Assembly: GCA_048537945.1 (NCBI GenBank)
Contig: CM108483.1
Location: 9,786,715-9,850,714, forward strand
Direction of reading: 5' to 3'
Origin: Mnemiopsis leidyi
Lineage: Eukaryota
Length of the DNA stretch: 64,000 bases
Positions 7,735 to 52,578 of this stretch are shown here, piece after piece (the stretch's first letter is position 1; each line of letters opens with the position of its first letter). Below the pieces are notes generated by a model. The model made no database searches and was not told the DNA's origin. It saw only the letters and a program-made list of their open reading frames with translations. Made by a program: the position numbers and the translations under genes.

Positions 7735-8925
7735 CGGTGTGGAGCGTGACATGGAAACATGGATCAGTGAAGTGTGGAGGAGGGTGACAGGGAAACCTGG
7801 ATCAGAGAAGTGTGGAGGAGGGTGACAGGGAAACCTGGATCAGACAAGTGTGGAGGAGAGTGACAGGGAAACCTGGATCAGAGAAGTGTGGAGGAGGGTG
7901 ACAAGGAAACCTGGATCAGAGAAGTGTGGAGGAGGGTGACAGGGAAACCTGGATCAGAGAAGTGTGGAGGAGGGTGACAAGGAAACCTGGATCAGAGAAG
8001 TGTGGAGGAGGGTGACAAGGAAACCTGGATCAGAGAAGCGTGGAGGAGGGTGACAGGGAAACCTGGATCAGAGAAGTGTGGAGGAGGGCGACAGGGAAAC
8101 CTGGATCAGAGAAGTGTGGAGGAGGGTGATAGGGAAACCTGGATCAGAGAAGTGTTGAGGAGGATGACAGGGAAACCTGGATCAGAGAAGTGTGGAGGAG
8201 GGTGACAGGGCAACCTGGATCAGAGAAGTGTGGAGGAGGGTGACAGGGAAACCTGGATCAGAGAAGTGTGGAGGAGGGTAAAAGGGAAACCTGGATCAGA
8301 GAAGTGTGGAGGAAGGTGACAGGGAAACCTGGATCAGAGAAGTGTGGAGGAGGGTGACAGGGAAACCTGGATCAGAGAAGTGTGGAGGAGGGTGACAGGG
8401 AAACCTGGATCAGAGAAGTGTGGAGGAGGGTGACAGGGAAACCTGGATCAGAGATGTGTGGAGGAGGGTGACAGGGAAACCTGGATCAGAGAAGTGTGGA
8501 TGAGGGTGACAGGGAAACCTGGATCAGAGAAGTGTGGAGGAGGGTGATAGGGAAACCTGGATCAGAGATGCGTGGAGGAGGGTGACAGGGAAACCTGGAT
8601 CAGAGAAGTGTGGAGGAGGGTGAAAGAGAAACCTGGATCAGAAAAGTGTGGAGGAGGGTGACAGGGAAACCTGGATCAGAGAAGTGTGGAGGAGGGTGAC
8701 ATGGAAACCTGGATCAGAGATGTGTGGAGGAGGGTGACAGGGAAACCTGGATCAGAGAAGTGTGGAGGAGGGTGAAAGAGAAACCTGGATCAGAGAAGTG
8801 TGGAGGAGGGTGACAGGGAAACCTGGATCAGAGAAGTGTGGAGGGGGGTGACAGGGAAACCTGGATCAGAGAAGTGTGGAGGAGGGTGACAGGGAAACCT
8901 GGATCAGAGAAGTGTGGAGGAGGGA
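7735..8925. repeat. Minisatellite of ~30 copies of a 39 bp unit gtgacagggaaacctggatcagagaagtgtggaggaggg
   Basis: Near-perfect tandem iteration visible directly, with point variants among copies. It lies within a SHANK intron. Confidence 0.95.
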
Positions 8926-9399
8926 CAGGAATCAGAGGACGGAGCTTCAGTTACTTGGAGTTCAGACGGATTGCCTAATTTCTCTAACTATCTTACAGTC
9001 GGCCCCAACAATAGCATCTCGTCACTACGGAACACAGCCCCGATTGGGAAGGTAGATGATGTAATTAAACTTAACAGTTGCACTCTAACTAACATATCTG
9101 TTTTATGTGGGACCCATCGTGCCGTGCGGCTACACAAACGATACAAAACGAAGATTAAGGATACAAAATGTCAAGCAAAAATTGAATCGAATGACGCGAG
9201 TTTAACTAACCCCATCTTGAACGACTGAACGTTATTTGATTATTTGAATTAAGGGCTTCTAGTTCAGATTTATGGGCAGTGTTGTCTGTTAGCTCGATTT
9301 TAAAATCAGAGCAAAATTGTTGCTGCAAGCTCCTTGATTCTCTCCGACGTCACAATCTCAGACGTCACAATCTCACTACAATTAAACACAACATCATAC

Positions 9400-11402: not shown

Positions 11403-12827
11403 ATGGAATTGGAAGAGGAGTTAGCAAAACAGAGGGTAGTCATTGGGGGGCTTCTCAATGTAGCAAGTGCAGATGCTAAGAGAGTACTCGCTGCATACAG
11501 TCCTGAGAAGGGTTACAGTTACAATCTAACAAAGCTTCTAAAATGTAACTCGAGGCAATTAGAAGCTTGTGCTAGTTTAGTCGGTCTGAAGGCTAGGTCT
11601 GCCGACGGAAGTGATAAACTGTATCAGAAGCTTGAGATCTTAGCAGATAGGATTATCCTGAAGATAGAGTCACTGTTCGAGGCAGAATGCAGTGACTGCA
11701 GAGCTGTGTACTGCAACACACTCGAGTCTGAGCCGCTATTCACGTGCAGGCTCTGTTTACTTGGCAGTCATAACTGTGAGGAGATCAAGAGAAAGGCGGA
11801 AAACGTTGGCCAGCTGTATCCATCTGGTTTTGTCTGGCTGTGTAACGTTTGTCTCGGGAAAAACGACTTGGTTAGCATGCTTTCTCCCACCAACACTCTG
11901 AAAAAACAACCTCTAAAGAAGAACTCCAAACCTACAGCTAGTGTGGAAAAACTTAACACTATCAAGGAAAAGGATTCGGAGGAAGAGAAAGCCGAAGAAG
12001 AAGAAGAGATAAAGGAGGAGGAAGACAAGGTGGACGAGAGACAGAGCCCTAATAGGGTTCGTGATGATAGAGAGAGCGAAAAGTCTGGCAGGGAGAGTCA
12101 GAAAGAGAAGAACCGTGAGATATGCGAGCTGTACAAGAGGAGAGCTTGCCCCCATGGGCTTAAGGGAAAAACTCTACATGACGGAAAGGTGTGTGATAAA
12201 AGTCACCCTAAGAAATGCTTCAAATTCTGTGATTTCGGTTCGAGACATAAAAATGGATGCAAGAGAGGCAAGAAATGTCAGTATTGGCACCCGAGACTTT
12301 GCAGGTTCTCGCTGAAAAATCAGATATGTGAAGTTGAAAGCTGCACCTTCCAACACCTAGTTTTTGACAAAAAAGAGAGGCGTGTGGGCAACAAGGAGCC
12401 GACAGGAGAAGAAAGGGGAGAAAGGGAGAGTGATGTGACAGGAAGGCCTGCAACAACCCGCAATCTGGATCGTGCACCCAAGTTCAGTATTGCTTCATCA
12501 GGCTACAACGGCAGCTACACCCCTTACCCCCCAACTATAGGGAAGCCTGCACCCTCCAAAAAGCAGACGGAAGAGGAGGACATTTCTTTTTTATTCAAGC
12601 TGATCGAGAATCTTCGGGTGGGATTCCAAGAGCAGCTAGAAGGGTTGAGAACAGAGATTGTGAAGGGGCGAGACACGGGGAATCAACTGGCCAATCAGCA
12701 GAGCCAGCAGGAATTCAGGGATCCAAACATGCAGGTGTGTCAGAGAGGGATGCAGATGAACCACCCATTCCCGTACCTGATGCCACACCCGTGGTACAAC
12801 CAGAATTATCCTCCTTTGTCCTCCTAA
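11403..12827 (+). CDS. LINE ORF1: gag-like nucleic-acid-binding protein with Cys-rich zinc-finger/knuckle clusters and an acidic/basic low-complexity linker
   Basis: 474 aa ORF with Cys clusters (CSDCRAVYCN...CRLCLLGSHNCEE...CNVCLGK; CPHGLKGK...CDKSHPKKCFKFCDFGSRHKNGCKRGKKCQYWHPRLC) lying immediately upstream of and overlapping ORF2, the usual LINE layout. Confidence 0.75.
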   Translation: MELEEELAKQRVVIGGLLNVASADAKRVLAAYSPEKGYSYNLTKLLKCNSRQLEACASLVGLKARSADGSDKLYQKLEILADRIILKIESLFEAECSDCRAVYCNTLESEPLFTCRLCLLGSHNCEEIKRKAENVGQLYPSGFVWLCNVCLGKNDLVSMLSPTNTLKKQPLKKNSKPTASVEKLNTIKEKDSEEEKAEEEEEIKEEEDKVDERQSPNRVRDDRESEKSGRESQKEKNREICELYKRRACPHGLKGKTLHDGKVCDKSHPKKCFKFCDFGSRHKNGCKRGKKCQYWHPRLCRFSLKNQICEVESCTFQHLVFDKKERRVGNKEPTGEERGERESDVTGRPATTRNLDRAPKFSIASSGYNGSYTPYPPTIGKPAPSKKQTEEEDISFLFKLIENLRVGFQEQLEGLRTEIVKGRDTGNQLANQQSQQEFRDPNMQVCQRGMQMNHPFPYLMPHPWYNQNYPPLSS

Positions 12828-13945
12828 ACGGACAAAGTGTGTCTCCTGCAGCAACAAGCACATCAAGGTGGAAACTCCCATACCTGGAAAAGACCATAAA
12901 GGAGTTTAGCTGTCCACCACCTTTTATGGCCATCACAGAGACGTGGCTGAAGGGCTATATTAGTGACGCGCAGGTGACAATTGAAGGATATCAGAGTTAC
13001 AGATCAGATAGAGAGGATAGAGTAGGAGGAGGCTGCTTGCTCTACATTCATGACAGCCTTGTAGTCACGGACACAGAGCACTACGAGGACAAGCACCATA
13101 ACATGATCATGTGTTATGTTAGGTCCTGCAATACAGTAATTGCAACTATATACAGACCACCTGGACCCGAGGCACTAGGCTGGAAAGCACTACTTGATAG
13201 GTTACAGATAAAAATTGATGGCTTATCTGAGGGTGGCACAACTCCCGACCTTTACATAGTAGGCGATTTTAACTACCCAGAAATGTACTTGGACCTTGGA
13301 TACTCAGAGCATAGCAGTAGGCCTGGACAAGGTAACGAGTTACAAGAGTTTGTCGATCGAAACTTCCTAACTCAGGTTGTTCAGAAGCCAACAAGAGAAG
13401 GGAATACTCTAGACCTGGTATTTACGAATGTGTCCAGGTACGTTATGGAAGTCGAAGTGAGTGACACCATTCTTTCAGACCACAGGCTAGTGGAGGTACG
13501 GTTGGGGTTCAATATGGTCGGCAATGCCATCGCAAAAGAAACTTCACTGGATCCGTACTCATTTAGAGCAGTTGACTATCACAAAGCCAACTTTGAGGTA
13601 ATGAATCTACAGTTATCCGAAGTGAACTGGGAGGAACTGTGGGAGCTGTGTGACAATAATCTGGGGGAGTTCTTGGAACTTATGCGGCTAACAGTCCTGC
13701 AAGTTACTCTCCTGCACTCGCCCCCAAAGGAGGACAAAGCTGCTGCTATCTCAAGGAGGAGAAGGGCTAACAGGCATATCAACGTCATGAAACGGAAAAG
13801 AAGAAAGCTTAATGCCAGGATAAGGGCGTTAGAATCAGCAAATCCAGGCTCAGGGAGACTGCGGGATCTTAAGTCTGAAGTGGCACTCCTTTGCTACGCC
13901 ATACAAGAGGGTACCCTGAATAAACTGGACAAGAGGGAGAAACGG
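12737..13945 (+). CDS. LINE ORF2 5' part: apurinic-endonuclease-like (EEP family) domain, truncated by a transposon insertion whose first 3 nt (tag) create the stop
   Basis: Typical LINE APE motifs (ITETWL, LLYIHD, YRPPG, IVGDFN, LDLVFTN, SDHRLVEV). The ORF runs into TAG at 13946-13948, which is the first triplet of the inserted element. Confidence 0.85.
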
Positions 13946-16900
13946 TAGGGTGCGCCCTTTTTTCTAAACCTATATGGGCTCTACCCTTATCTGATAGAGC
14001 TCAACGAGCTGAAAACGAGGATGCCTTCCTTTTTGAAATTGGACAACGGGAAAGACTACCCCTGGTCGTTTAAAAGTTACGACGATCTAGGATGTACATG
14101 TTGCGCACGCGCGAACTCGGACGCTTGCATATGCTGCACCTGTCATAACTCACGCGCATTTAGCGCGGCTTCATGGTAACTTCCGTATACACAATGATTA
14201 TCTAGTCACTGACGTAATGCAGTGCTGGCGACTTTGACAAAAGAAAGCAAAGAGGACATACTCCTGACTGAAATCGACCGAGAAATCGTTTAAAGCTATC
14301 GTCGAGGCTCTAAAATGTGACACTAACTCGATAAATGATAAATGATCGGGATTGTAGCTATATAAAAGGTCACAATTCCTGGAATTATTACAGGAGACAA
14401 ACCTTTGAAACGTAAAACAGATCAAGTGAAACACAATCCGGCGAGGATCAAGTAGCAAGCAAGTTACTAGTACTAAAATAAACAAAACCTATATTGCCAA
14501 GTTAGTACTAGTAGTCACAAAATATTTTAGTTACTCAATCGACAGTCGCTCGGTTGCATTATCATAGGAAAGCGAAAGAAACCGTTTACTTTAAACATGC
14601 ACAGCCACAAGCAGTAAGCACACGTTTAACTGAAGTATCGTTCAAGTCAACCCGAATACACAGAGGATATCTCTTATATACCACACTCAGTAGGGGAATG
14701 AAGCGATCTCATTGGCTCCTAGTACGGCTAGCTACGTCACTAGAAGTAGAGACCTAGAGTAAGGTAAAAGTTACGTCACATATCTGCCTGCCGGAGTGAG
14801 GAAAATCAAACGATCTGATTGGCACACAGCTGCAGTCACGTGACTAGATTGAGTGGGGCAAAAGAAACGAACCATCTCTGCTTGCAATTTCCTCACTCAA
14901 ATGATGATGAATCATGATGTGAGTTGTACCGATCTTGAGTGAGGGAAACCAAGCAATCTCATTGGCTAGAAGCAGCAGTCACGTGACCTGGTAGAGTGGG
15001 GAAAAAGAAACGAACCATGTCTGCTTGCAATTTCCTCACTTAAATGATGATGTGACCCGTATCGATCTTGAGTGAGGGAAACCAAGCGATCTCATTGGCT
15101 CATGGCTGCCGTCACGTGACTTGGTAGAGTGGGGCAAAAGATACGTTACACCTTTGCTTGCAACTTTCCCACTCAGATCATGGCGATGCGAACAGTACCG
15201 ATTAGGAGTGAAACGAGACTGAGGCCAGAGTAAGGCAAATCATACGTCACTACAAGAACTTGACGGTCCCCAGAGTGTAATCTTTCGCTCGTTGCCCGTC
15301 AAAAATATGGACTCTGATATGCGAATATCGGCAGCTAGATTAAGATTGTGACCAATCCTTCTCTAGTTAACTTCGCGGCCAGAAAACGTTCCGCTACTAT
15401 ACCAGGGAAAATACTCGAGCTGCGGGGTGCCGTGTCAGATTTTGTCCGCCTGATTAGGTCTGGCGCATTGTCAGGCCTGCTATAAGAAATTTTTCATCGA
15501 TGCATGATTTACAATATAATCATACTTAATTTTTTTAGTGCTAGTCAATCAAACTGAAACATTAATCTAACGTCGTATACGAGTGTTGATAAAACTATAT
15601 CCGTCCGAACGTTAAACGGTTGTGTAGTAATACTACTACTAGTACAAGTACAACTAAGGGTTGCTTCAGTGTTAGGACATAGGTTCAAGGATCGACCGGG
15701 ATCGCTTTTTCAGCCGGGACCGGGACCGGGATCGGTAAAAATGGCCGGGACCGGGATTTTGCCGGGACCGGGATTGTAACCGGGACCGGGACTGTAACCG
15801 GGACCGGGATTGCGACCGGGATCCCGGTCGGTCCCTGCAAAGGTTATAGTTCGATTTAAAATAGAGGGGGTGGATTTAAATGACAAGTCGATTAAGCTGG
15901 TACAAAGGAGACGTCCATGTTAATGTAACTGATTGGCTTTACGATAGACTACAGCAATTAAGGTGCACTATTAGTATTTTTCATATTGGGCGGATTACAT
16001 TTTTCGGAAAGCAGGGGCTGACTCACGCCTCAATATCTGATCGCCATACTTGACACTACACCCGATCCGTGCTGTTTACATTATCTTGTTAAATCTTAAT
16101 TTGTCACCGTGTCGCAGTAGACTGTGAGGAAGCCTTCTTCAGTTGACATCTTCAGCAGGCTTTTTTCGACCCTCATTATCAGAAGCGAATTATTCTCCAA
16201 GAATTTAAAATGTCGGGATGGTGCACGTGCTGTACAACCGCAAGCTCCAATTCCAGGGCATTTTAACTGATCGGTAATATAACGGGTATTTTAACTTTAA
16301 GCTGTTGTCTCACGCTCTGCAAAGTGATTGCATTGTTTTAGGAGAACAATCTTAGAATTAGATAGGGATGTATTATTATTTGCAAGGTCAAGCTACATAG
16401 TGATATATTGTAGATAAACTTAAATATTTGATCATTTCTGTTGAGTCTGTCCGCTCTTGGTCCTAGTAAAAAGTTGCGTTACTGTCGGCTGATAAGGAAG
16501 CGAAGCTAAAAATCTAAACAAAATCTGGATACTGTCAAACCAATTGTGAATTGGTGTTAGTTTTACGTTGTAGGTTGAGAACCTTCTGCCGCGGCCATCA
16601 CGGGCTCTCGCGCATTTCTGGCCTAGCGACACAAATTTTAATTTTTAAGAAATTCTAGACGCTCATCGCCCGTTAAGTTTTACTTTAAAGCTAAACGCTA
16701 CTGGCCAGATCAAAGCGATGTATCATTATATAATGGTCACTCGCAAGACTAGCTTTATAAGTCGATTAGATCGCTTATTTCCCCGGAGCGGCAGCCCCAC
16801 TAAAAAGTTATTTTGAATCTGTAAATGTGCACCGGTAACAGTAACACAGTAAAGGATCCCCAATCAGCAATGGAGGTGACGTGTCTTCAGCTTTAGCGGT

Positions 16901-18151
16901 TACCGTTCGAGTACAACTACATAGTAGTGACGTGTGATTCGCCTAACTCTAGCCTCAATCACGTGACCAGCTGCAAGCCAAAGAGATCGCTTGGTTTCCT
17001 TCACTCCTAATCGGTGCAGGTCGCATCGTTGTGATCTGAGTGGGGGAGTTGCCTGGTGCAAGCAAAGTTGAAAGTTGTGACGTATCCTTTGCCCCACTCT
17101 ACCAAGTCACGTGACGGCAGCTATGAGCCAATGAGATCGCTTGACTTCCCTCACTCAAGATCGGTACAGCTCATATCATCATTTGAGTGAGGAAATTGCA
17201 AGCAGACATGGTTCGGTTCTTTTTCCAGACTCTACCAGGTCACGTGACTGCAGCTGCGAGCCAATGAGAAGCTTGGTTTCCCTCACTCCAACAGGTAGAT
17301 ATGAGACGTAACTTTTACCTTACTGTAGGTCTCTAGTGACGCAGCCGGCCTGAGGAGCCAATCAGATCGCTTGATTCCCCTACTGAGTGTGGTATATAAG
17401 AGCTTTACTTGTTGTTTTCGGGTTGATTTGATCGATACTTCCAGTTACACGTGTGCTTACTGCTTGCGGCTGTGCATATTTAACAATCGGTTTCTTTCGC
17501 TTCGCTATAATAATGCTACCGAGCTACTGTAGATTGAGTGACTGAAATATTTAGCGACTACTAAGTTTGCAACATAGGTAAGCCTCACGTTGTGGCCCCG
17601 TTAGTCCTACTGTCATCCCGGTTCTAGTATGAGTACAAGATGCTTGCTTGCCACTTAGTCCACGCTTATCGCCGGATCATTCGATCTGTATTACGCTTGA
17701 AAGGTTTGTCTCTTGTAATAATTCCATCAATTGTGACCTTTGATATAACAACAATCCCGATCATTTATCGAGTTAGTGTCACATTTTAGAGCCTCGACGA
17801 TAGCTTTAAACGATTTCTCGGTCGATTTTAGTCAGGAGTATGTCCTCTTTGCTCTCTTTTGTCAAAGTCGCCAGCACTGCATTACGTCAGAGAATAGATA
17901 ATCATTGTGTATACGGAAGTTACCATGAACCCGCGCTGAATGCGCGTGAGTTATGACAGGTGCAGCATGCAAGCGTCCGAGTTCGCGCGTGCGCAACATG
18001 TACATCCTAGATCGTCGTAACTTTTAAACGACCAGGGGTAGTCTTTCCCGTTGTCCAATTTCAAAAAGGAAGGCATCCTCGTTTTCAGCTCGTTGAGCTC
18101 TATCAGATAAGGGTAGAGCCCATATAGGTTTAGAAAAAAGGGCGCACCCTA
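13946..18151. mobile_element. Non-autonomous foldback-type DNA transposon. It has perfect terminal inverted repeats (tagggtgcgccctttttt...), ~1.3 kb inverted arms (13946-~15245 and ~16880-18151) with ~127 bp tandem subrepeats, a ~1.6 kb unique core without ORFs, and a 9 bp TSD gagaaacgg (13937-13945 / 18152-18160)
   Basis: The reverse complement of 13946-14440 matches 17700-18151 nearly base for base. The subrepeats (gagtgagggaaaccaagc...tcacgtgac...) occur 3x in each arm in mirrored orientation. Identical 9-mers flank the element. Removing the element plus one TSD restores the ORF2 frame. Confidence 0.85.
15700..15840. repeat. (gaccggga)-type microsatellite with palindromic character, inside the core of the foldback element
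   Basis: Iterated cgggaccgggat motifs ending in the palindrome gaccgggatcccggtc. Confidence 0.8.
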
Positions 18152-18160
18152 GAGAAACGG

Positions 18161-20050
18161 GCAGTAGAGACTATAAAGGACAACCCAAAATACTTCTTTT
18201 CATATGCTAAACGTCTACAAAAGACAAAGTCCACCATACCTGTCCTTAGAGATGAAAATGGCAGGCTGGTAGAGGACCCTGCGATTAAAGCTGAACTGTT
18301 GCAAACCCAATATCAAAAGGTTTTCAGCAACCCAAAGGATGCAAACCTTGAAGAGTGTATGGGAAATCCGGGTTTACCACAGGGATCAAATCAAGGTTTT
18401 GGTGAACTCAGTTTTACAATAGAAGACATCTTAGAAGCCCTGGAGGAATTAGATCCGTACTCGGCAGCACCTGACGGCGATATTCCTGCAAAGATTCTGA
18501 AGGTCTGTAGATACCAGCTAGCGGGCCCACTCAAATTGCTATGGTACGAGTCATTCAGCAGGGGGTGCATACCGGAGGAGCTTAAGACACAGTATATCAC
18601 TCCTATTTACAAAAAGGGTGATAGGACGGACCCTGCAAACTACAGGCCAGTGTCACTGACCTCTCATGTTATGAAGACCTTTGAGAGGGTGATGAGGAAG
18701 TACCTCGTCAAGTATCTTGAGGATTCAGAGTTCCTGCATAACAACCAACATGGGTTCAGAAAGAAAAGGAGCTGTATGACCCAACTCCTCAGCCATATCG
18801 ATCAGATTTACCAGTCGCTCAACAACAACGACGAAGTCGATGTGATCTATCTAGACTTTGCTAAGGCTTTCGATAAAGTCGATCACTCGATCCTACTTGC
18901 TAAATTAGCTCGTTATGGCATTAAAGGTAAAGCACTCAAGTGGCTTAATGAGTTTCTGTGTGGAAGGAAGCAGACAGTAGTTGTTGAAGGCACGAGGTCA
19001 TCTCTACAACCGGTTGTGAGTGGTGTACCTCAAGGGACAGTACTGGGTCCTATTCTTTTTGTGCTCTACATAAACGATCTGTTGAGTACAATTAAACACA
19101 GCTGCGGGTTTAGCTTCGCCGATGATACTAAACTCATCGGAGGTATTCAAGGGCTATCCAGTGTGAACCACCTACAAGATGACCTGAACTTAGTGATAGA
19201 GTGGTCAAGGAGTAATAATATGGAGCTGCACGAGCAGAAGTTTGAAGTGGTCAGCTACAACCTCAACACGTCGAAGACTCTAAGAGAGCTCCCGTTATAC
19301 CCTGAAAATGTTGAGTATAGCACCCCAAAAGGACATGTTATAACACCACAGGAAATTGTCTGTGACCTGGGTGTCAATGTTAGCAGCAGCAGGGGGTGGG
19401 GACCACACATCGAGAAGACAGTTCAGGGAGCTAGGAAGATGGCGGCATGGGTATTGAGCGCGTTCAGAGATCGGTCACCCACTGTGATGCTCACATTATA
19501 TAAGAGTATGGTCCGGTCCAAACTTGAATACTGCTGCCCAGTCTGGAATCCTGTGAAGATTACAGAGATTCAGAGGCTAGAGAACGTACAGAGATCGTTC
19601 ACAAGGAAGATACTTGGCTGCAGTGAGCTTCAATACTGGGACAGGCTAAAGAAGCTCAAGTTAATGTCACTTCAAAGAAGAAGAGAGCGTTACTGCATCA
19701 TACACGTTTGGAAGATCTTAAACGAAGAGGCTCCGAATGACATTGGCTTCACATTCAACTGTCACCAGCGACTGGGGTTGAAGGCGGTTATACCACCGGT
19801 GAACAAGAACTCCCAACTGTCGGTGAGATCTGACTACGACAGTACATTCAGGGTTAGAGCAGCTCAGCTCTTCAACATCCTGCCACCAGAGCTCCGTGCT
19901 ACTACCTCACTGGATGGCTTTAAGGCAGGACTTGGAAGATTCATGGACCAGTGCCCAGACACCCCACCGATCCCGGGTTACACTCCATCGAACGACAACT
20001 CGCTACTGAGCTGGAGGAGGACGCACACGATGCAGTTGTCCTGTGCATGA
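18161..20050 (+). CDS. LINE ORF2 3' part: reverse transcriptase domain plus a C-terminal domain, in frame with 12737-13945 once the nested insertion is removed
   Basis: RT motifs 1-7 (PDGDIPAKILK, YRPVSLTSHVMKTFERV, QHGFRKKRSCMTQL, IYLDFAKAFDKVDH, SGVPQGTVLGPILF, FADDTKLIG). The join ...gagaaacgg|gcagtagag reads EKRAVET, and the excised length 4215 equals 3x1405. Confidence 0.9.
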   Translation, partial: AVETIKDNPKYFFSYAKRLQKTKSTIPVLRDENGRLVEDPAIKAELLQTQYQKVFSNPKDANLEECMGNPGLPQGSNQGFGELSFTIEDILEALEELDPYSAAPDGDIPAKILKVCRYQLAGPLKLLWYESFSRGCIPEELKTQYITPIYKKGDRTDPANYRPVSLTSHVMKTFERVMRKYLVKYLEDSEFLHNNQHGFRKKRSCMTQLLSHIDQIYQSLNNNDEVDVIYLDFAKAFDKVDHSILLAKLARYGIKGKALKWLNEFLCGRKQTVVVEGTRSSLQPVVSGVPQGTVLGPILFVLYINDLLSTIKHSCGFSFADDTKLIGGIQGLSSVNHLQDDLNLVIEWSRSNNMELHEQKFEVVSYNLNTSKTLRELPLYPENVEYSTPKGHVITPQEIVCDLGVNVSSSRGWGPHIEKTVQGARKMAAWVLSAFRDRSPTVMLTLYKSMVRSKLEYCCPVWNPVKITEIQRLENVQRSFTRKILGCSELQYWDRLKKLKLMSLQRRRERYCIIHVWKILNEEAPNDIGFTFNCHQRLGLKAVIPPVNKNSQLSVRSDYDSTFRVRAAQLFNILPPELRATTSLDGFKAGLGRFMDQCPDTPPIPGYTPSNDNSLLSWRRTHTMQLSCA

Positions 20051-25439: not shown

Positions 25440-25915
25440 CAATAAACTTCCCAGGCCGGTAACCAGTACCCAGGCCGGTAACCAGTACCCAGGCCGGTAA
25501 ACAGTACCCATGCCGGTAAACAGTACCCATGCCGGTAAACAGTACCCATGCCGGTAAACAGTACCCATGCCGGTAAACAGTACCCAGGCCGGTAAACAGT
25601 ACCCATGCCGGTAAACAGTACCCATGCCGGTAAACAGTACCCATGCCGGTAAACAGTACCCAGGCCGGTAAACAGTACCCATGCCGGTAAACAGTACCCA
25701 GGCCGGTAAACAGTACCCATGCCGGTAAACAGTACCCATGCCGGTAAACAGTACCCAGGCCGGTAAACAGTACCCAGGCCGGTAAACAGTACCCATGCCG
25801 GTAAACAGTACCCAGGCCGGTAAACAGTACCCAGGCCGGTAACCAGTACCCAGACCGGTAAACAGTACCCAGAGCGGTAACCAGTACCCATGCCGGTAAA
25901 CAGTACCAATAATCT
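25440..25915. repeat. Minisatellite of ~24 copies of a 20 bp unit ccggtaaacagtacccaggc (with cat/cag variants)
   Basis: Direct tandem iteration. The three overlapping minus-strand ORFs in the track here are repeat-translation artefacts. Confidence 0.95.
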
Positions 25916-41203: not shown

Positions 41204-41270
41204 TGTCTGACTTTGTCCGACTCTCATTCGAGAGAATAAAATGACGGGAGGGTGCGCGCTGCTGTACAAC
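41204..41270 (+). repeat. Copy 3 of the ~70 bp motif, directly abutting the mariner right end
   Basis: Sequence identity to copies 1 and 2. Confidence 0.75.
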
Positions 41271-41866
41271 AGGAGAACTACTATCTCCGCAAGCCACTGT
41301 CTTGAATCAGGATTTGGAATTTAGATCTACCTTATTTGCCTCAACTTACTGATTTTCAAGTGTTCACTCCACTTGATTAATAGCCAAGAGTTGAGGACGG
41401 CTTGTACAGTTTTAAAACTCTGCTCCTTATTTTTCCGGTGGTTTCAGTAGCTTTTCATGTAGAACATCATTGCTGTGCTAACACCATGCTTTAGCCTTTA
41501 TTCAGTGCCAAAGCTTTCGAGCCACTTAGATGTACAGACAGGCAGCGATAAACAACCTAAACTGACTTAAAAGTCAGTTTTTACGCTTTGAACTTGACCA
41601 GAGTCCTGTGCCTGGGCCCATCACTTTTTGCATGTAAAGATGCCATTAGATATTTTTTATTTAAAGTGCAGTAAAACATACATTTTCAGTGAAATGTTAC
41701 CTGCAGTGATTTAATCCCCTGTCAATTAGTAGGAATAATTGGCAGGTGGCCTGATTTTTTGGGACTTCACAATAATCAATCTTCAGTATAGGCCATTGGA
41801 GTAAGTGTAAGCTTAGGTGTGATTTAGTTAGAAAAAGTTGATATTGTTTAAAACACAATAACTTAA

Positions 41867-43183
41867 TTGTTTACTTCAGCTATCAAAATGCCGATTCCAA
41901 ATCAACAGACTGCCTCTGAAGTTATGAAAGAGCGCGAAAGGCTTTACAAGCTTATTATCGGTCAACTCCGTAAAGACAAATTTGAGACTGTTGCATATGA
42001 GTTAACAGTTGCGCTCAAGAATGCCACTGGTGGATTTATGATTCAGAGTGCTCCTACAAATAGGCTTAGTCAGCTAGTCCAGTATGGAATAAAATATGAA
42101 GAACTTAATGAAGAGACTGAGACGCATAGCAAAAAGCTTGAGAAAGCCACAAACCTTGGCCCTGGTTTAGATCTAGAGTATGACACAGATGACATGAACT
42201 CCTCTCCTACTGTTATTCAATATGAAACTGCTTATGTTACCTCACACAAAGCCCCCTGTCGTGTTGCCTGCTTTACAGCTGATGGAAAACTCTGTGCTAC
42301 AGGGAGTGTGGATGCAAGTCTAAAAATAATGGATGTTGAACGGATGATTGCCAAATCACAGCAGCTTCAGAGGCAAGAGAACGAAAATCATCCTGTCATA
42401 AGAACTCTTTATGACCATCTTGACTCGATAACTGCACTCACTTTCCATCCTGTTACAACACACTTGGTAAGTGGATCCAAGGACTGCACCATCAAGGTGT
42501 TTGACTTTACCAAAGCTAGCGTGAAAAAAGCAGTCAAGTGTCTGGAGGAGGGGGCATCAGTCAGAAGTTTGGCTTTCCACTCTACAGGGGACTATCTGCT
42601 GATGGCTCTTGATCATCCAGTCATAAGATTGTATGATTATGTCACTCTGAAGTGCTATGTTTGTTCAAATAGTCTGTCACAGCACTCGGGTCCTGTTTTG
42701 GCATTATGTTGGAACTCTGACTGTACAATGTATGCAAGTTGCAGTAGTGACGGTTCCATTAAATTGTGGGATGGTGTTAGCAACAGATGTGTGAAAACCT
42801 TTGATGATGCTCACAACGGTGCTGAAGTGACCAGTGTTCAATTCTCAAGGAATGGGAAATATGTGCTATCCAGTGGAAAGGACAGTGTTGTTAAGCTTTG
42901 GGAGGTTACCAGTGGTAACATCTTGAACGAGTATGTAGGTGTCACTCAGCACAACCACCGAACTGGAGCACAGTTTAACCACACCGAGGACCTGATCATA
43001 GCTCCTGATGAGAAAGGAATGGCTGTTGGGTGCTGGGATGCTCGCACTGCTGAGCCTCACCCCCATTTAGTGTCTGGACACAACAATGTTATTCGGGGAG
43101 CAATTCACTCTCCTACCATGCCAGCATTCATATCTTGCAGTGACGATTTCAGGGCCAGATTTTGGTATTACAGAGGAATTTGA
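41867..43183 (+). CDS. CSTF1: Cleavage stimulation factor subunit 1 (CstF-50) ortholog with N-terminal dimerisation region and WD40 repeats, encoded as a single uninterrupted ORF
   Basis: 438 aa ORF collinear with human CSTF1 over its whole length (LYKLIIGQL, YETAYVTSHKAPCRVA, ENHPVIRTLYDH, SNRCVKTFDDAHNGAEV, FNHTED, CSDDFRARFWY). A possible acceptor (tttacttcag) sits just upstream in the 5' UTR. Confidence 0.9.
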   Translation: MFTSAIKMPIPNQQTASEVMKERERLYKLIIGQLRKDKFETVAYELTVALKNATGGFMIQSAPTNRLSQLVQYGIKYEELNEETETHSKKLEKATNLGPGLDLEYDTDDMNSSPTVIQYETAYVTSHKAPCRVACFTADGKLCATGSVDASLKIMDVERMIAKSQQLQRQENENHPVIRTLYDHLDSITALTFHPVTTHLVSGSKDCTIKVFDFTKASVKKAVKCLEEGASVRSLAFHSTGDYLLMALDHPVIRLYDYVTLKCYVCSNSLSQHSGPVLALCWNSDCTMYASCSSDGSIKLWDGVSNRCVKTFDDAHNGAEVTSVQFSRNGKYVLSSGKDSVVKLWEVTSGNILNEYVGVTQHNHRTGAQFNHTEDLIIAPDEKGMAVGCWDARTAEPHPHLVSGHNNVIRGAIHSPTMPAFISCSDDFRARFWYYRGI

Positions 43184-45002
43184 ATAATACCATTTTTACA
43201 TGAATTTATCCACAGACATTTTATTATGCTTGATTGTTTAGACAGTGACACTTGCTTGTGTGGTTGAAAGATTTAGTCATTGATGTGGATCACAGGATGC
43301 AGTTGATTATGATAGAGCTTGTTTTGCTCTACAGTTTTATTTTTGAATATGATAACTTATTGTTTAAATTTGAATTTGATATTCGACTCTATCATTTCGT
43401 TTACCTTTCAAACTAAACAATGTATGAACTTAATCTTCAAAGTTCAGTTGAAGCAGTCCAGAAAATATACCGAATTTTAAAAAAAGTAAAGATTGCCTTG
43501 ATGATGAGATTGAACTAAAGTTATTTAGTTACGAAGTACTTGGCAGCTGAAATAACATTAAAGGTTCATTTCTAGATCTGTTCCTGGCTGCTGGAGAGAG
43601 TGAAATTCCTGAATTCTTACAAGGTCAGTTCTAGTTGGTCAGTTTCTGTACTGTAGTGAATTATACAGCAAAGCATTGAGGTTCTATAGAAGCTATTTTA
43701 CACCATATTCATGTCACTTGCACTAGGGCAGGAAATTTTTCTTTCTCACCAAAAAGTTTAATTCAAAACTGTTCATAATAAATTATTAGTTGTGTCTTTT
43801 CTCTGCACACTAACTTATTCGCGACTAGTGCACGATGGTCTAGCAGTCACTGCACTGCAAAAAAGTTACTACTATTATTCAACTTCAGTTGTATTACTTT
43901 GCTAATTTTTCAGTAAAATTAATATAGTAATTACACCGTAGTAATACCACTGGAGTGGTATTACTTTATTAATACCATTATAGTAATTACACTCCAGTGG
44001 TATTACTAATTCATGTCCCGAAATCGACCTTAAAACACGATTCTAACCAATTTTTTCTGCTTTGGACAGTTAAGTTAAGTACAGTGCGCGCCAAAATTAA
44101 CTTCCGATGTTGACTGTTGTTTCAATGTGTATCTAGGTCCATGTGGTCGATATTTTTGAAATCACATTCAGGCCAATTTTCTGTGAAAATTTCTGCATTT
44201 TTAGGTCTTTTAAGGCCCTAGAGTCCCAATGTAGGTAATTCTAAATGTAATTCGCCCACCTTTTTGTTGACAAAAGGGTTCGATGGGGTGACAAAAAATG
44301 TCAAGTAAATATCTCTACTTCAAGAATTGGAAGAGAAGTAGCCAAATCACGCATTTGTACTGGATAAGCCTCTGTTAGGAACAATTTTTCCCAGCCAAAA
44401 TCACGTATAGTAGCTAGCTGTCAAAAGCTATGTCTATGGACTTACAGCAAAACTTTCAGCAGGATATCTTGAGATATGACCTAACTACGTCGGCGTCCTA
44501 TTTTCAGTAACGACAAGCACACATAACGACGTCATCAAAATACGGCCCTCTGTTGTCAAACCAAACAGATACTAAAATCTAAGAACAGATAACTTGAACT
44601 TTGGTCTGTCTGCCGACACATTAACAGGCACCTCTATGCTCCGACCCTCAGGGCTCCTTCCCTGTAATTGGTAGGGATATGACACGTGACAGTAGACATG
44701 GTTACCTATTGGTTGCGGGGCTCTAGGCTCTCACTATATTCGGGCTGGGTTAAGAAAACAGTCCACTTTATCGTTTGCAAATCATCAGTAAGATAGGGGG
44801 CTCTCAAATGTTTGATAATTTTCCTGATATTAAACGGTTTGGATAAGTGAACAATTGGGCAAAACTGTGCCTTACGTGGACTAAACTAGTAAAATGCTTG
44901 ATTCCGCTTTACTTTTCCTCTTTCAATTCTTGAGAGCCTGGGATATTTACTTGAAATTTTTTATTTTACACCAGCTGTAATTGTTAACAACGCAGTTGAA
45001 TA

Positions 45003-45175
45003 ATACAGTAATACCACTATTGGTATTGCAATTACCATACGTAATTCCACTCGCAAGCTCGTGAAATTACTTCAATAAATCCACTCGCAAGCTCGTGAAT
45101 TTATTGCATGAATACCACTCGCAAGCTCGTGGTATTAATATGGTAATTGCACTACCAATAGTGGTATTACCGTAT
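45003..45175. repeat. Hairpin (MITE-like) structure of ~35 bp inverted repeats flanking 3 tandem copies of ccactcgcaagctcgtga. A related palindromic segment lies at 43910-44005
   Basis: cagtaataccactattggtattgcaattacc ... ggtaattgcactaccaatagtggtattaccg are mutual reverse complements. Confidence 0.6.
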
Positions 45176-45299
45176 ATAATCAACAATTTTTCTAACCAAA
45201 TTTCTTTTGATAAACCGAATTTAAAATCTTTACGTTTTTAATATTTTTGAATTATTGTTTCGGTTGAAATTATTGCTTTCGTCTAGAATTGGACTTGAT

Positions 45300-45480
45300 T
45301 TTGCGGAACAGAACTGATGTTATCGTCTAGAAAAGTAGAAACTGATGTTAGAAACTGATGTTTGGGTTGGGAAATAATGTTTAGGTTAGAAACTAATGTT
45401 TCAGTCTACATATCAATGTGATTTTTGAAAGTAGAAACTGGTCTTTTGGTAAGAAACTGATATTTCGGTAAACAATTTTT
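45300..45480. repeat. Degenerate tandem array of a ~17 bp unit (agaaactgatgtttNgg)
   Basis: Repeated gtagaaactgatgtt / ttagaaactaatgtt units. Confidence 0.7.
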
Positions 45481-46567
45481 TGCACAGATGGTCTAGCCGC
45501 AACTGCTAAGTTCCAACTGTTACCTTTATCGTTAAAACGGCATCTTATATGAATCTGTGGCATTTCAAGTGCAACTTGATATCTTCGCACCTGTCTTGTA
45601 GTTTTACATTCTCAATGGTCAAGGAAGCACCAGAAAAGGAATAATAAACCTCAGCACAATCGTCAACCTACTCTGAAGACTATTTAAAGCAATAATACCG
45701 TGCCTTCTACTTGGCCGTTGTCATAGTTGTAGTTATAACATAGTATAGGTGCCGTGTGTGAAGATTTATGAATATCGAATTTCACCGCTCAGCTTTGAAT
45801 TTGGTCAATCAGAGTTTGTCTCATTTCTTCCCGTTACAGTAGCTGGATTCCTGTGCGCTAATATAGTATGACTTTGTATCAAGGTAGTCCACTGTATTTC
45901 TATTTGTGCTATTTATTATTTGTTGTTTTATACCCTCGCTCTATCTTGATTATCAAAATGAGACTTTATATTATGCTGTATGTGTTTAGCTTGTTAGATT
46001 AACAAAATGGGTTCGTAGTGTCGTCTTATTGGGCTAACATCAAGCTTGGGTTATCACGTTCGTCAACTAAAGGTAACATGGAGATTTAGATCGAATCTTA
46101 GTGATAATTGTGTTGGGCGAAGTGTGAGTGACGTGTAGATACTAATACAGTAGGGCTAGAGTTTCCATTTGCAGTTCAGATCGATAATAAAGCGGCTTCT
46201 TTAGATCCTCGTACCTTGTTTCGTCTACCTGTACATTTCTCTAATATATTTTGAGTACTTATTTCTCGAAAATCTTCAGCTGGTTTTTACGTAAAGGAAA
46301 TGATAGCGACAGGTTGTACGCCGACAAGTACATAAACAATCAACATATCTAGTATTTATACCTGTACACATGCATTGTTGTGTGGATGTACTGTCATGTA
46401 GACTCGTTAATCTAATTGCTTAACACACGACCACATAGCTAGTTTTGTACTTTTGCTGTGAACAGTATTGTTTTGTACTTGTCCTGCTAGTTTTCTCAAT
46501 TTTAACTCCGTTTTGATTTTATGTCTGTTTCAATCTCCACCAGACTTAGTGAACATATTTTTCCCCT

Positions 46568-49500
46568 TAATTAGGGGGGGGGGGCCACGTCCCTAAAAAG
46601 CCCATTTTTACCTTCGCGGACCCCCGAAGGGCCCTAAAAAATGGGCTTTTTTGGGCCCTAGAAAAAATTAAAATCATGCTTTATATTAGAATAATTTAGA
46701 TCAATTCAAACTCGTTCTTTGCATCGTTTTCAATTTTAAAAGGCACTTTGTATGATTTAACCCGTTGTTCTATTGAAATTTGGTCCCAAAAACTCCTTAT
46801 TTGTCCCAATTTTGATCCCAAAAAGTAGCAACTGTCACTTCATTTGGTAGAGTTTTCATGTACTGCTGGGATGCTACTGTAGCATTACTTAAATAGTAAC
46901 TACTACTGGTTTAATGCAGGGTTTTGGGGGTACTACAAGGATATAACAGGGGGATTACTGGGGTACTACTAGGGTCCAACTGTGGTACCAAGTCGGGGTA
47001 CCACCGTGGTACCACTGGGCTCATACTTTGGTACTACCGGGTTACTACATGGGAGCCACAACTTGGTACTACTAGGATACTACTAGATTACTACTGGAAT
47101 ACTACTCGGATATTACTGGGATGCTAATGGAGTACTACACGAGTACTACTGGGGCACCATTGGGGTACTTCTACACTGGGATACAGCTATGATAATGTGA
47201 TACTACTGGGGTACTACAACTGGTTTACTACGGGAATACTACAAGGGTTCAGCTGGGGTACTACTGGGCCTAAAGCACTACATGGGCACTACTGGGGAAC
47301 TACTAGGATACTAATGGGGTACCAGTAACCACTGGGTTATGACTGGGGTACTACTTTTGTTTATAGGGGTACTATTGGGATAATACTAGGATGCTACTGG
47401 GATATGACTGGTGTACACTTCTGGGGTACTACTGGAGTCCTAGAGGGGAACCTTGGGTACCACTGGGGTACCACAGCTAGGTGACTACTGGGGTAATTCA
47501 GTGGTACAACTGGGACATTACTGGAGTACTTAAGGAGTACTACAAGGGTACTTATATAGGAGTAATATAGGAATACTACCTGGGTACTACAGAATTTCTA
47601 CTCACCAATTGGGTCACTTCTTGGCTTCTACAGGAGTACTAAGTAGGCGTTATACTATGGTACTGCTGTGATGCTACTGGGGTATTATAACTCGGTGATT
47701 TTTGGGATACTGGGGTACTACAGTGGTACTACTGGGATACTACTGAGTCACTACTGGGGTACTACAGTAATACTAATTGGATACTACTGTGTCACTACTG
47801 GGGTACTACAGTGGTACTACTGGAATACTACTGGGGTACTACAGTGGTACTACAGTGATACTACTGGGATACTACTGGGTCACTACTGGAGTACTACAGT
47901 GATACTAATGGGATACTACTGGGTCACTACTGGGGTACTACAGTAGTACTACTGGGATACTACTGAGTCACTACTGAGTACTGGGGTACTACAGTAATAC
48001 TAATGGGATACTACTGTGTCACTACTGGGGTACTACAGTGGTACTACTGGTATACTACTGGGGTACTACAGTGGTACTACAGTGATACTACTGGGATACT
48101 ACTGGGTCACTACTGGAGTACTACAGTGATACTAATGGGATACTACTGGGGCACTACTGGGGTACTACAGTGATACTAATGGGATACTACTGGGTCACTA
48201 CTGGGGTACTACAGTGGTACTACTGGGTTACTACTGGAATACTACTGGGTCACTACTGGGGTACTACAGTGGTACTACTGGGATACTTATGGGATACTAC
48301 TGGGTCACTACTGGGGTACTACTGTGGTACTACTGGGATCTAATGGGATACTACTGGGGCACCACTGGGTTACTAATGGGGTACTACAGTGGTACTACTG
48401 GGATACTACTGGGGTACCACTGGATATTGCTTGAGTTCCAAAGGAGTGATACAGGAGAAACATAGGAATAATCCTGGGCTACCAGTGGATTCCTAATTGG
48501 TACTGCAGGAGTACTACTTGGGTACCATTGTTTCACTTCTGGGGTTCTGCAGACTACCAAGTAGGGGTACTACTATGGTACTGCTTGGATGCTACCCGGG
48601 TACTACAGCTGGATCACTACTGGTGTACTACTGGCTTACTGGGGTACTAAAGAATTGTGCTGAGGTACTACTATAGTATCGTTGCATCGGGGTACTCATA
48701 GGGTACTATTGCACCTTGGGCACTACATGTGCATTAATTGGGCACTGCTGGGTACTACTGGTTCACTACTGTGGTATTACCGTGGTTGTAAAAGGTTCTA
48801 TTGGGATAACACTGGAGAACTACTGGGGTACTACAGGGATACTACAAGGATATTACTGGGGTGCCACTGCGTTATTACTAGGATTCACAAGGAGTGCTAC
48901 AGGCCAGGGGTACCACTGGAGTACTACTTGTGCACTTCAGGAGTACTTGTGGGGTACCATTGGGTTACTATTAGGGTACTTTTGCACTACTTAGTTGGGG
49001 TACTGCCGGGATACTACTGTGATACTACTGGGGTACTGCAAAAGTACTAGTGAGGTACTGCAGTTTTACTAAGTTGGGGCACTACTAAGGTAGTTCTGGG
49101 ATACTTCTCAGTGCTGGAGCACTACAGCTTTGTTACTACTGGGATACTACTGGATAACTTTTGGGATACACCTGGGGTACTACTGTGGTACTACTGGGGT
49201 CGTAGCGGTTTAAATAAGGTACTACTGGGGTATTATATTGCTAGTGAACTACTTGAATACAACTGGGGTACTACTTTGTTATTGCTGGGATACTGCTAGG
49301 GTACTACAGGAATGCTACTGGGTTACTACTGGGGTACTGCAGGGACACTAAAGGGGTGTTCTTGGGGTACAATTGCAGCACCACTGGGGTACAACTGTGG
49401 TACTACCGGGGTACTACATGGGTAGTATAGGAGTGCTTCTGGAGAACTACTCAGTACTGGGGTACAACAGGGACAGAAAAGGGGTTAAATTGGGACACTA

Positions 49501-50136
49501 CGTGGGTACTACAGTGGTATAGGTACTACTGTGGTACTACTTGGTTACTACTGGTGGTCTACAGTGGTTTATAGGGGTACTATTCGGATATTACTGTGGT
49601 ACCACAGGAGTACGACTGACAGCAGGACTAGACCCTGTATGATCTTCTGCATTTAAGCAATAAGACAGAACTTAACTCACTGTTTCATCTCTAAAACTTT
49701 GCCTGACTCTGTTCCTTACAAGTTGCCACTAGGACATAGATTATCATTTCAAGACAGTAATGAACGACCATGATCCCTCTCTTATAGTAGATAATCTCTC
49801 TAACATGTGTTTCTACTTATTTGCCATTGTTGAATGCAAAAATATGGTCTACATCTACTGACTGATCATATATAATGAAGTCTATTCGATGTAAACTAGT
49901 TCTAAAATGATCTCTTTTAAAGCTTTCTCATGGTGAAATTGATGAAAATAACAGTATTTCGGCCAGTTTTGATCATATCTCCCATAATTATAATCCAATA
50001 TACTGCCTAAAGTTGGATAAAGTCATAAAATTTTAGGGCCCAAAAAGTCCCATTTTTACCTTCGGGGACCCCTCAAGGGCCCTTAAAAAATGGGCTTTTT
50101 TGGGCTTTTTAGGGACGTGGCCCCCCCCCCTAATTA
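46568..50136. mobile_element. TIR-bounded element (~3.6 kb) with 35-36 bp near-perfect terminal inverted repeats taattaggggggggggccacgtccctaaaaagccc, a ~60 bp subterminal repeat in direct orientation at both ends, and an interior made almost entirely of satellite. No ORF
   Basis: Left end 46568-46603 equals the reverse complement of 50102-50136, including the G10-11 run. The subterminal cccatttttaccttcgNggaccccNaagggccctaaaaaatgggcttttttgggc appears at both ends in the same orientation. Confidence 0.7.
46920..49620. repeat. Satellite array with base unit ~12 bp (GGGTACTACTGG / GTACTACAGTGG variants). Its core (47700-48300) is organised in ~219 bp higher-order repeats
   Basis: Visible 12-mer periodicity. 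Blocks at 47716, 47935 and 48015 repeat at a 219 bp offset. The plus-strand GYYWGTTG ORFs in the track are repeat-translation artefacts. Confidence 0.9.
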
Positions 50137-52397
50137 TCCCTTACAAAACTGCAGTCTGCATCTAAGTAAGATCATGCAACATCATTAGAACATGTTATAT
50201 CATTCCTTATTGTGGTACACAGAGACTCCTTTACTCTTAAGATGGACTAAAGTATTCATTTATTAGATATTAATTGTTTTGTTCACTCAGCTGTTAAACT
50301 AGACGTTGCAGTTTCAGCTGGTCTAAGTCAAAGTCACCAACCCCAGCACGGTTCCGTGTACCGCATTCCGTAGAATCCAGCTCTAACGTTCTGGCACAGT
50401 CAGGTATTCTAGACTGTGACTCATCTTCTAAATCCAATCTGAAAACAAGATAAGAACCACCTAGTTCCTATCATGCCTGTAATTCGATATTTTCAAGCTT
50501 TCTCCATTTAAACTGTCTGCCTTACCTGCTTTCTTTCACACTGTCTTGCGTCAGCAGCGTCTTCTTGCTTACTTTTTGTAGTTAGCTCTACATGGGGTCG
50601 AGGAAAAGGGAATGATTTTTACTGAATGAGGATTACGGATTATAGTTGAAAACTCTGAAGAGCATATTATAAGAATAGGTTACAAAAGTAAGTCTCCCGG
50701 CTTAGTTTATGACCTTTATTTTCATTTTCAGTATGTGACGTCTCTTTCTCTCTTCAAAGTAGTTCCTAGTCACAAGTGAGGATGTGATAACTTTTGAACA
50801 ATTCAATTACTTTCTTGCTAACTTCGCTCGTATGTGACTGATTTGGATGGTACAGCTTATTCAAGAATGCAGTTTGTTAGACGATGAAGTCTTCGTTAAC
50901 TTTCTTGGTGGTTGAGTTGAGCAGATCGATTGTCTTTAGAGTTTATTATACAATAATTATAGTCATTACCTATCGTTTGACAAGATGCCAAATTCCTTTA
51001 ACTTTATTCTGCTGGCCAGAGCGATATAAAATATGAGTTTAGGCCCGAGCTGTTACGATGACCACGCTCCTCCTCCCACCACACGCCCGGAAATAGATCA
51101 GCTGTAAACACATCGTGGTGGGACCTCCTAAAAATCAATCTGTAATTTGAGCCGTTACAGCCTTTCAATTTTCGTGCCACTTCTGCTTTTCTTAACATTG
51201 TTGCAGTTGAGCCTTTCTGATTTTGATGAAATCAGTCGGCCACAGTCCAAACCACATACACATAGTGTGGCCCTCTCAAATAGTAAAAAGAAGCTCATGA
51301 GAGTCCATGGAAATTGAATACACTTTAGTAAATTGCTTTTTAAATCAGAAACGTTGGTTTTGATTAATTGCTAAGAATTCTAATGACTTTTCTGTTCTGA
51401 AATATATTTAAGTGGTCGATCGGTTTTAAATAGCAGAAATTTCAGTTCTTTATAAACGTGTGACCGAACCTAAAGTCGGTATGCATTATCTTCTCTTCTG
51501 TCACGATGTGACTGTCTGCCGAGACCGGACTTAATCTTTCCTCGCGGGTCATGCTAATTTTCGTAACATGCTTGTACTTGTGAACTGTTTTAAGATTAGT
51601 TGCAGGATTATACAATCTTGCATAGTGGTAGATCTTTCCGCTTTTTACTTATTTTCCTCGCTCACGTACTGATGTTTTGTCTCGACTTTTTGTAAAAGAA
51701 ATAATAATTAGGCTGCTGTGCCCGTCATCAAACTGGAAATTACCTATTTTTGTCATGATTAGAGAATTTTTCGAGAACTATCCGCTCCTTCACTTTCTGT
51801 TACGTGGTTCAACAACACAGTGGCACACTCATACGATAGTTCATTAGGTAGGCTAGATAATTCGCATCTTCCCAGCATGGCATTAGCCGCAATCTTTAAA
51901 TCTACTGTTGTATCATTAGTATTGTTTAAGTCATCCCTGTCTGTGGACACGTGACACAGTGCTTCACCTCCATATACGGTGCCCTGGTCTACACTTTCTG
52001 GGATTGTTATTCCGAGCTAGACTTGGAATCTCTGTAATTGTCCAGACATCTGGCTCCAGCTATATTAAGTGATCTTTTTTTAGGTTGCAGAGTGTTATAT
52101 GATATTGTTAGTCGTTGTTTCATGCTGTCCTTCATTTCATTTCCACCTTTTATTCAATTTTTCCGTAGTTCCTGCCTGTTCATAAATAGTTATATTCCGC
52201 TGCAATCTGGCAATGGCTTTCAAAGTTGTAATGCTGGCCAGCTATTTCATTGGGTAACGACTTTCTGAAATAGTTCTTGTCATTTTCGATTGCCATGTAT
52301 AGTGATACGTCACACGCGTGTATATTGTATAAGTAGCTGAGTACACTGGGTTTAAAAAGTGCAATCAAGTGGTAATGTAACTGCCGAACTAATTCAG

Positions 52398-52578
<181 letters not shown>

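Follow-up and report, generated by a model that had tools for sequence, protein, structure and literature searches.

A 64-kb stretch of nuclear DNA from the comb jelly Mnemiopsis leidyi (a ctenophore), hereafter called the window, contains at positions 46568-50136 a non-coding element of 3.57 kb. With moderate confidence we interpret this element as one copy of a non-autonomous class II transposon, that is, a cut-and-paste element with terminal inverted repeats (TIRs), the non-coding middle of which has been expanded in place into a minisatellite with an 11-bp unit. Its anatomy, combining inverted termini, a structured subterminal region, a motif concentrated at the ends, the absence of coding content and unique flanks, fits a non-autonomous TIR element. 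The original prediction for this DNA had proposed an element of this type, and that proposal is partly supported, namely in its anatomy.

The flanks of the element are unique and unrelated to each other, and their boundary with the termini is sharp on both sides. Directly abutting these unrelated flanks are inverted repeats, the arms of which (46575-46604 and 50101-50130) are 100% complementary over 30 nt, and a palindromic TAATTA outside each arm extends the termini to 36-37 bp.

46568-46604, plus strand: left terminal inverted repeat, consisting of TAATTA, G11 and CCACGTCCCTAAAAAGCCCA, with its left junction also present in L005, a contig from another M. leidyi individual.
50101-50136, minus strand: right terminal inverted repeat, the reverse complement of TAATTA, G10 and CCACGTCCCTAAAAAGCCCA.

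A 25-nt core of the TIR has exactly 2 matches in the 64-kb window and 0 in 100 shuffles. The run of G residues within the termini has a length of 11 at the left end (46574-46584), of 10 at the right end (seen as C10 at 50121-50130) and of 9 in L005 (positions 4031-4039). This homopolymer is thus either unstable or hard to sequence, and its variation may reflect real instability or an effect of sequencing or assembly. For the same reason the termini, which had been described as perfect, are fully complementary over 30 nt but not strictly perfect.

Next to the outer arms, each end carries a module of 65-67 bp, and the extended structured terminal region comprises about 95 bp at each end.

46592-46656, plus strand: left subterminal hairpin module, with a stem formed by AAAAAGCCCATTTTT and AAAAAATGGGCTTTTT around an inner part of 26 nt (-21.1 kcal/mol, z = -5.7).
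46637-46663, plus strand: left inner inverted arm, pairing with 50031-50057 over 27 nt with 89% complementarity.
50031-50057, plus strand: right inner inverted arm, pairing with 46637-46663.
50039-50105, plus strand: right subterminal hairpin module, oriented like its left counterpart (-19.2 kcal/mol, z = -3.4).

When aligned in direct orientation the two modules are 91% identical over 67 bp, whereas the inverted alignment of the same two ends reaches only 72%. Both fold as hairpins, and no shuffled sequence folded as well. The predicted subterminal module of about 60 bp, direct at both ends and capable of forming a hairpin, was therefore borne out in both respects. The arrangement at the ends, with outer and inner segments inverted but the part between them direct, could be reached most simply if one module had been flipped between its own inverted stem arms, a flip that is possible because the module is bounded by such arms. 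In addition, the 9-mer GGGCTTTTT occurs 5 times in the window, where 0.78 occurrences are expected and no shuffle reached 5, and 4 of the 5 lie in the two termini; it looks like a subterminal repeated motif as found in many DNA transposons.

The element contains no transposase open reading frame (ORF) and has no coding capacity, the only ORFs being frame-rotating ones of the repeat. Neither the stop-free stretches of the spacers nor the array ORFs nor the longest ORF gave a Pfam match. The array ORFs were rejected as protein-coding, given that the stop-free 11-bp unit rotates the frame with every unit and that no Pfam match was obtained. Similarly, scans with Rfam and ARAGORN revealed no RNA family and no tRNA within the element, and an RNA gene was rejected on these grounds.

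Between the terminal regions lies a tandem array of about 250 units, which is separated from them by spacers that are not repetitive.

46664-46859, plus strand: left non-repetitive AT-rich spacer, with a lag-11 identity of about 0.27-0.37; in the environmental contig L003, positions 46796-46860 show conservation of about 95%.
About 46860 to 49620, plus strand: array of 11-bp units with a consensus of about GGGGTACTACT, G-rich on the plus strand and degenerate except in its core.
47708-48423, plus strand: recently homogenised core of the array, with a 44-bp higher-order unit (15.9 copies, 83% matches) and one duplication of about 227 bp.
49621-50030, plus strand: right non-repetitive AT-rich spacer, in which no coding remnant was detected.

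The interior had been described as consisting entirely of a satellite with a 12-bp unit and higher-order repeats of about 219 bp, and this description requires correction in several points. The period is 11 bp and not 12 bp, as given by Tandem Repeats Finder (TRF) and by an autocorrelation of 0.57 at lag 11 versus 0.22 at lag 12. Within the homogeneous core, which spans only 0.7 kb, autocorrelation amounts to 0.77 at lag 44 and to 0.53 at lag 227, whereas lag 219 (0.39) forms no peak, and the higher-order structure consists of the 44-bp unit and the single duplication of about 227 bp instead. The interior does hold an array in one orientation, but about 0.6 kb of it, the two spacers, is non-repetitive and AT-rich. 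No microsatellite was found at either edge of the array. All units share one orientation, GC skew ranges from +0.16 to +0.20, and matches to the array unit in the window (73 of 73) all lie inside the element (46953-49551) and on the plus strand. A foldback element was rejected on the basis of this single orientation. The idea of the element as a source of satellite DNA at other genomic sites obtained no support; in the window the array is found only inside the element. The k-mer TACTACTGGGGTACTAC of the array has about 70 occurrences per haploid genome from this one locus.

Outside its core the array is mostly degenerate, with a lag-11 identity of about 0.4-0.6, and it is thus old and degenerate at the edges and young in the middle. 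Together, the degenerate edges, the young 44-bp core and differences between homologues in multiples of 11 bp (see below) point to growth in place rather than to capture of a pre-existing satellite; of the two origins that had been offered for the array, captured or generated, it is in-place expansion that agrees with the degenerate periphery and young homogeneous core, and not capture.

The same locus is present in a second individual of M. leidyi. Logan contig L005 (run ERR15996620) matches window positions 41242-43883 and 45175-46599 at 99.8%; it shares the left flank with the window and, at the same site, extends 30 nt into the element, where the contig stops. As this independent short-read contig has the left junction, the structure of the element is real, and an assembly artefact was rejected. 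From this comparison, which involves the only allele available, allelic divergence in the DNA neighbouring the element is about 0.2%. Under the assumption that Logan contigs derive from an assembly graph with k = 31, such a graph would branch at the element's own second TIR, and for this reason the break 30 nt into the element is uninformative about further copies. Elsewhere on the contig, a 1291-bp segment of the window (43884-45174) is absent from L005, which joins ...GTTACTACTAT directly to AATCAACAAT... at this point. The segment has hairpin-rich ends (43939-44008 and 45003-45175), inverted repeats at 44293-44335 and 44918-44962, and a 34-bp tandem repeat at 45042-45131, and Rfam hits resembling microRNAs, weak and below threshold, fall on its left hairpin. 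This presence/absence polymorphism is probably a different non-autonomous transposon.

Indirect evidence of further copies comes from homologues of the interior on two environmental contigs. A protein search with a 92-aa ORF of the array retrieved only P0121 and P0122, which led to contigs L003 and L004. L003 (JGI sample 3300050183, 1556 bp) is colinear with window positions 46796-48237 at about 94% identity per block, differs from the window by an extra block of 154 bp (14 × 11) and by several deletions of 11 bp, and includes 65 bp of the non-repetitive left spacer, which are about 95% identical. L004 (ENA ERZ23491123, 515 bp) corresponds to positions 48264-48766 with an identity of 91% by BLAST and a column identity of 93% by MAFFT. 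The nearest other species in the collection (contigs L001 and L002) has 87% identity in the coding sequence of the neighbouring gene CstF1 (described below) and does not align outside this gene; its two contigs were accordingly rejected as a source of an empty site. Contigs of P0131 and P0134, members of the CstF1 cluster, were likewise set aside, as they come from other samples and species (83-85%). Judged against an allelic divergence of about 0.2% and against the 87% identity of the nearest species in coding DNA, L003 and L004, which are 6-8% diverged from the window, would fit best as paralogous copies of a moderately young repeat family, and appear more likely to be such copies than alleles or sequences from the known sister species.

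Exact look-ups added no further records. For 17 ORFs taken from the element and L003-L005 the protein collection has no record, and neither a 36-aa ORF of the left terminus nor a 47-aa ORF of the right flank is on record in the gene index. Patterns of the array had 0 matches in IMG/VR and GTDB. A 23-mer shared by the window and the JGI contig L003 also had 0 matches in the JGI collection, which accordingly does not contain the sample of L003 and gives negatives of little weight.

With regard to the target site, the sequences abutting the termini provide a candidate for an imperfect target-site duplication (TSD).

46562-46567, unstranded: left flank hexamer TCCCCT, candidate imperfect TSD, which abuts the left terminus and lies in the left flank shared with L005.
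50137-50142, unstranded: right flank hexamer TCCCTT, the partner in this candidate TSD, as read from the sequence.

Between the hexamers 5 of 6 positions agree, or, seen differently, their C-runs differ in length by one base, and this agreement is not significant alone. If the TIR is read as starting with TTAGGG, the target would be TTAA, as for piggyBac, Kolobok and Sola2, and TTAA is found on the left (46567-46570) versus TTAT on the right (50134-50137). Duplications of 8-9 bp, of the hAT, Merlin or Mutator type, are absent at the ends of the element. The palindromic TAATTA that is counted here as part of the terminus could conceal a duplication of TA, AATT or TAATTA. The TSD had been called ambiguous, which was confirmed, and because one copy does not decide it, no superfamily was assigned.

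Several observations weigh against the interpretation as a transposon. The flanks offer no unambiguous TSD but only the imperfect TCCC(C)T. No empty site or allele was found, the only other individual recovered (L005) having the left junction. A second copy of the TIR is absent elsewhere in the 64-kb window, and the TIR core, used as a 23-mer or 21-mer, had 0 matches in JGI metagenome contigs, IMG/VR and GTDB, a weak negative as the host genome is not among these. No ORF similar to the 36-aa ORF, which is contained entirely in the left terminus, was retrieved among 1.84 billion representative proteins, the only hit being a spurious sushi-repeat protein. L003 and L004 stop short of the termini and are homologues of the interior only, and the link of the interior to the TIRs in other copies is therefore not covered by them. 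Finally, no autonomous partner of the element is known.

One alternative, which we consider possible but rather unlikely, is a non-mobile structure at a single locus, in which a local ~100-bp inverted duplication, arising for example from fold-back repair at the hairpin-prone module, encloses an ordinary intergenic minisatellite, and in which L003 and L004 represent the same locus in diverged haplotypes or in a sibling species. Occurrence of the TIR at this locus alone among everything searched, the lack of a clean TSD, the presence of the insertion in the only other individual seen and the full colinearity of L003 with the window copy all agree with such a structure, and fast mutation of a minisatellite could inflate allelic divergence. 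Against such a structure, the 65 bp of non-repetitive spacer in L003 are about 5% diverged as compared to 0.2% for nearby alleles. Furthermore, two unrelated, low-coverage environmental metagenomes each independently assembled a piece of the element, which is likelier for multi-copy DNA and suggests that the element belongs to such DNA. The ends themselves also speak against a local duplication: the passage from the termini to unrelated unique flanks is sharp on both sides, and a simple inverted duplication would not give outer segments of 30 nt that are perfect next to modules that are only 91% identical and in the opposite relative orientation.

A composite origin, in which two separate insertions of a palindromic element of about 100 bp in opposite orientation bracket a pre-existing minisatellite, is improbable in our view, although joint mobilisation would still be possible under it. 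Each terminal region of 95-105 bp is largely self-complementary and folds alone, and the modules are direct while the outer and inner arms are inverted. However, no solo terminal region was found elsewhere in the window, the inner ends of the terminal regions have no flanking duplications of their own, and a single array would have had to receive an independent insertion at each of its edges. Hardly credible is a hairpin-dependent single-strand or rolling-circle element, transposing in the manner of IS200/IS605 or of Helitrons, which would be recognised through the same-orientation modules, folding significantly better than shuffles at both ends, and would possess the TIR only incidentally, given that such elements are without long terminal inverted repeats, of which 30-36 nt are present here and perfect, that no coding remnant of Rep/HUH type was found, and that the sequence has neither the 5'-TC and CTRR-3' ends of Helitrons nor their A|T insertion site.

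If the element is a non-autonomous TIR transposon with a middle expanded in place, its insertion at this site would once have been carried out by a transposase encoded elsewhere that recognised the termini together with the subterminal motifs. Growth of the array would have taken place after insertion, or in a master copy, through replication slippage and unequal exchange, and recombination between the stem arms of one hairpin module would have flipped it, leaving the two modules in direct orientation. L003 and L004, the two environmental contigs, would in that case represent further family copies. A further-reaching proposal, which we regard as quite unlikely, is that the element might be the first described member of a ctenophore-specific TIR family with poly-G termini, a flip-prone hairpin module and a length-varying, G-rich 11-bp array that acts as a mobile 'proto-satellite' and could seed tandem arrays at new loci of Mnemiopsis.

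The remainder of the window contains genes, a retroelement and further repeats. An intronless ORF at 41888-43180 encodes CstF1 (cleavage stimulation factor subunit 1) and is identical to KAL5259679.1 from M. leidyi. In comparison with a sister species in ENA assembly ERZ25071805, the CstF1 gene (window positions 41888-43183) shows 99.5% identity at the protein level (429 of 431) and only 87% at the DNA level, a difference that indicates very strong purifying selection. In that species CstF1 is located on two contigs (L001 and L002) of similar coverage, which may represent haplotypes or a duplication. Parts of a long interspersed nuclear element (LINE) extend over 11403-20050 and comprise an ORF without a Pfam match (11403-12827), an endonuclease (12737-13948) and a reverse transcriptase (18299-20050); with about 4.3 kb between the endonuclease and reverse-transcriptase ORFs, the LINE is probably interrupted or present as two fragments. 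An exon of an ATP-binding cassette (ABC) transporter is also located in the window. CstF1, the LINE ORFs and this exon identify the window as nuclear ctenophore DNA. Additional tandem repeats are a 38-bp minisatellite at 7741-8924 (31 copies, 95% identity) with a strong G + A skew (GC skew 0.585 in 8001-9000), a 19-bp minisatellite at 25450-25907 (24 copies, 95% identity) that gives rise to spurious ORFs on the minus strand, a (TC)85 microsatellite of 98% purity at 52409-52578, located about 2.3 kb beyond the right end of the element, and a 166-bp unit at 1912-2244 that is present twice with 99% identity and contains a 13-bp micro-repeat.

Ctenophores are a very early-branching animal lineage. 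No description of a TIR element carrying tandem repeats was found for ctenophores in the literature. If the family is confirmed, it would provide a ctenophore case of the link between transposons and tandem repeats that is known from bivalves, insects and some protists, and the length of the array, varying in steps of 11 bp, would offer a class of polymorphic markers for population genomics of Mnemiopsis. No new mechanism is added, and as a single locus the element amounts to ordinary repeat annotation.

DNA transposons with tandem repeats in their interior are well documented (PMC3879986, PMC4079207, PMC8101967), and the element described here works like several of the known types without being a member of their families. 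In the tandem-repeat MITEs (miniature inverted-repeat transposable elements) of bivalves, such as pearl/CvA of Crassostrea virginica and DTC84 of Donax trunculus (PMC3879986), a central array is likewise framed by unique sequence on the left and on the right, each part ending in an inverted repeat, and coding sequence is lacking. The length of the array varies between copies in the pearl and DTC84 MITEs (PMC3879986) and also here, if the homologues are read as copies, and in both cases the elements are a proposed route by which tandem repeats arise and spread (PMC3879986). However, pearl and DTC84 elements are miniature, have up to five core repeats of satellite-like monomer size and are high-copy (PMC3879986), whereas the element from M. 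leidyi has a size of 3.57 kb, about 250 units of 11 bp, different termini and a ctenophore host. The bivalve elements also have a microsatellite at one end of the array and a putative TSD 'AA' (PMC3879986), neither of which is found here, where the flanks are not AA. Tetris, a foldback-type element of Drosophila virilis, is similarly a non-autonomous DNA transposon with internal repeats that can be amplified to arrays of kilobase size (PMC4079207). In Tetris, repeats of about 220 bp reside within long terminal inverted repeats and occur in both orientations, as is characteristic of foldback elements (PMC4079207), whereas the TIRs of the present element are short (36 nt, rising to about 95 nt when the imperfect part is included) and enclose repeats that all point the same way. 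Mini- or satellite-like repeats between TIRs also occur in autonomous DNA transposons such as Merlin families, where they have been discussed as 'proto-satellites' carried by transposition (PMC8101967). These Merlin-type elements encode a transposase and generate TSDs of 8-9 bp (PMC8101967), in contrast to the non-coding element in the window, which has no duplication of 8-9 bp. An ordinary G-rich minisatellite, of the variable number of tandem repeats (VNTR) type, shares with the array the 11-bp unit, the strand asymmetry, a homogenised core surrounded by degenerate repeats and length variation by whole units, but it is not bracketed by perfect inverted termini of 30 nt with structured subterminal modules.

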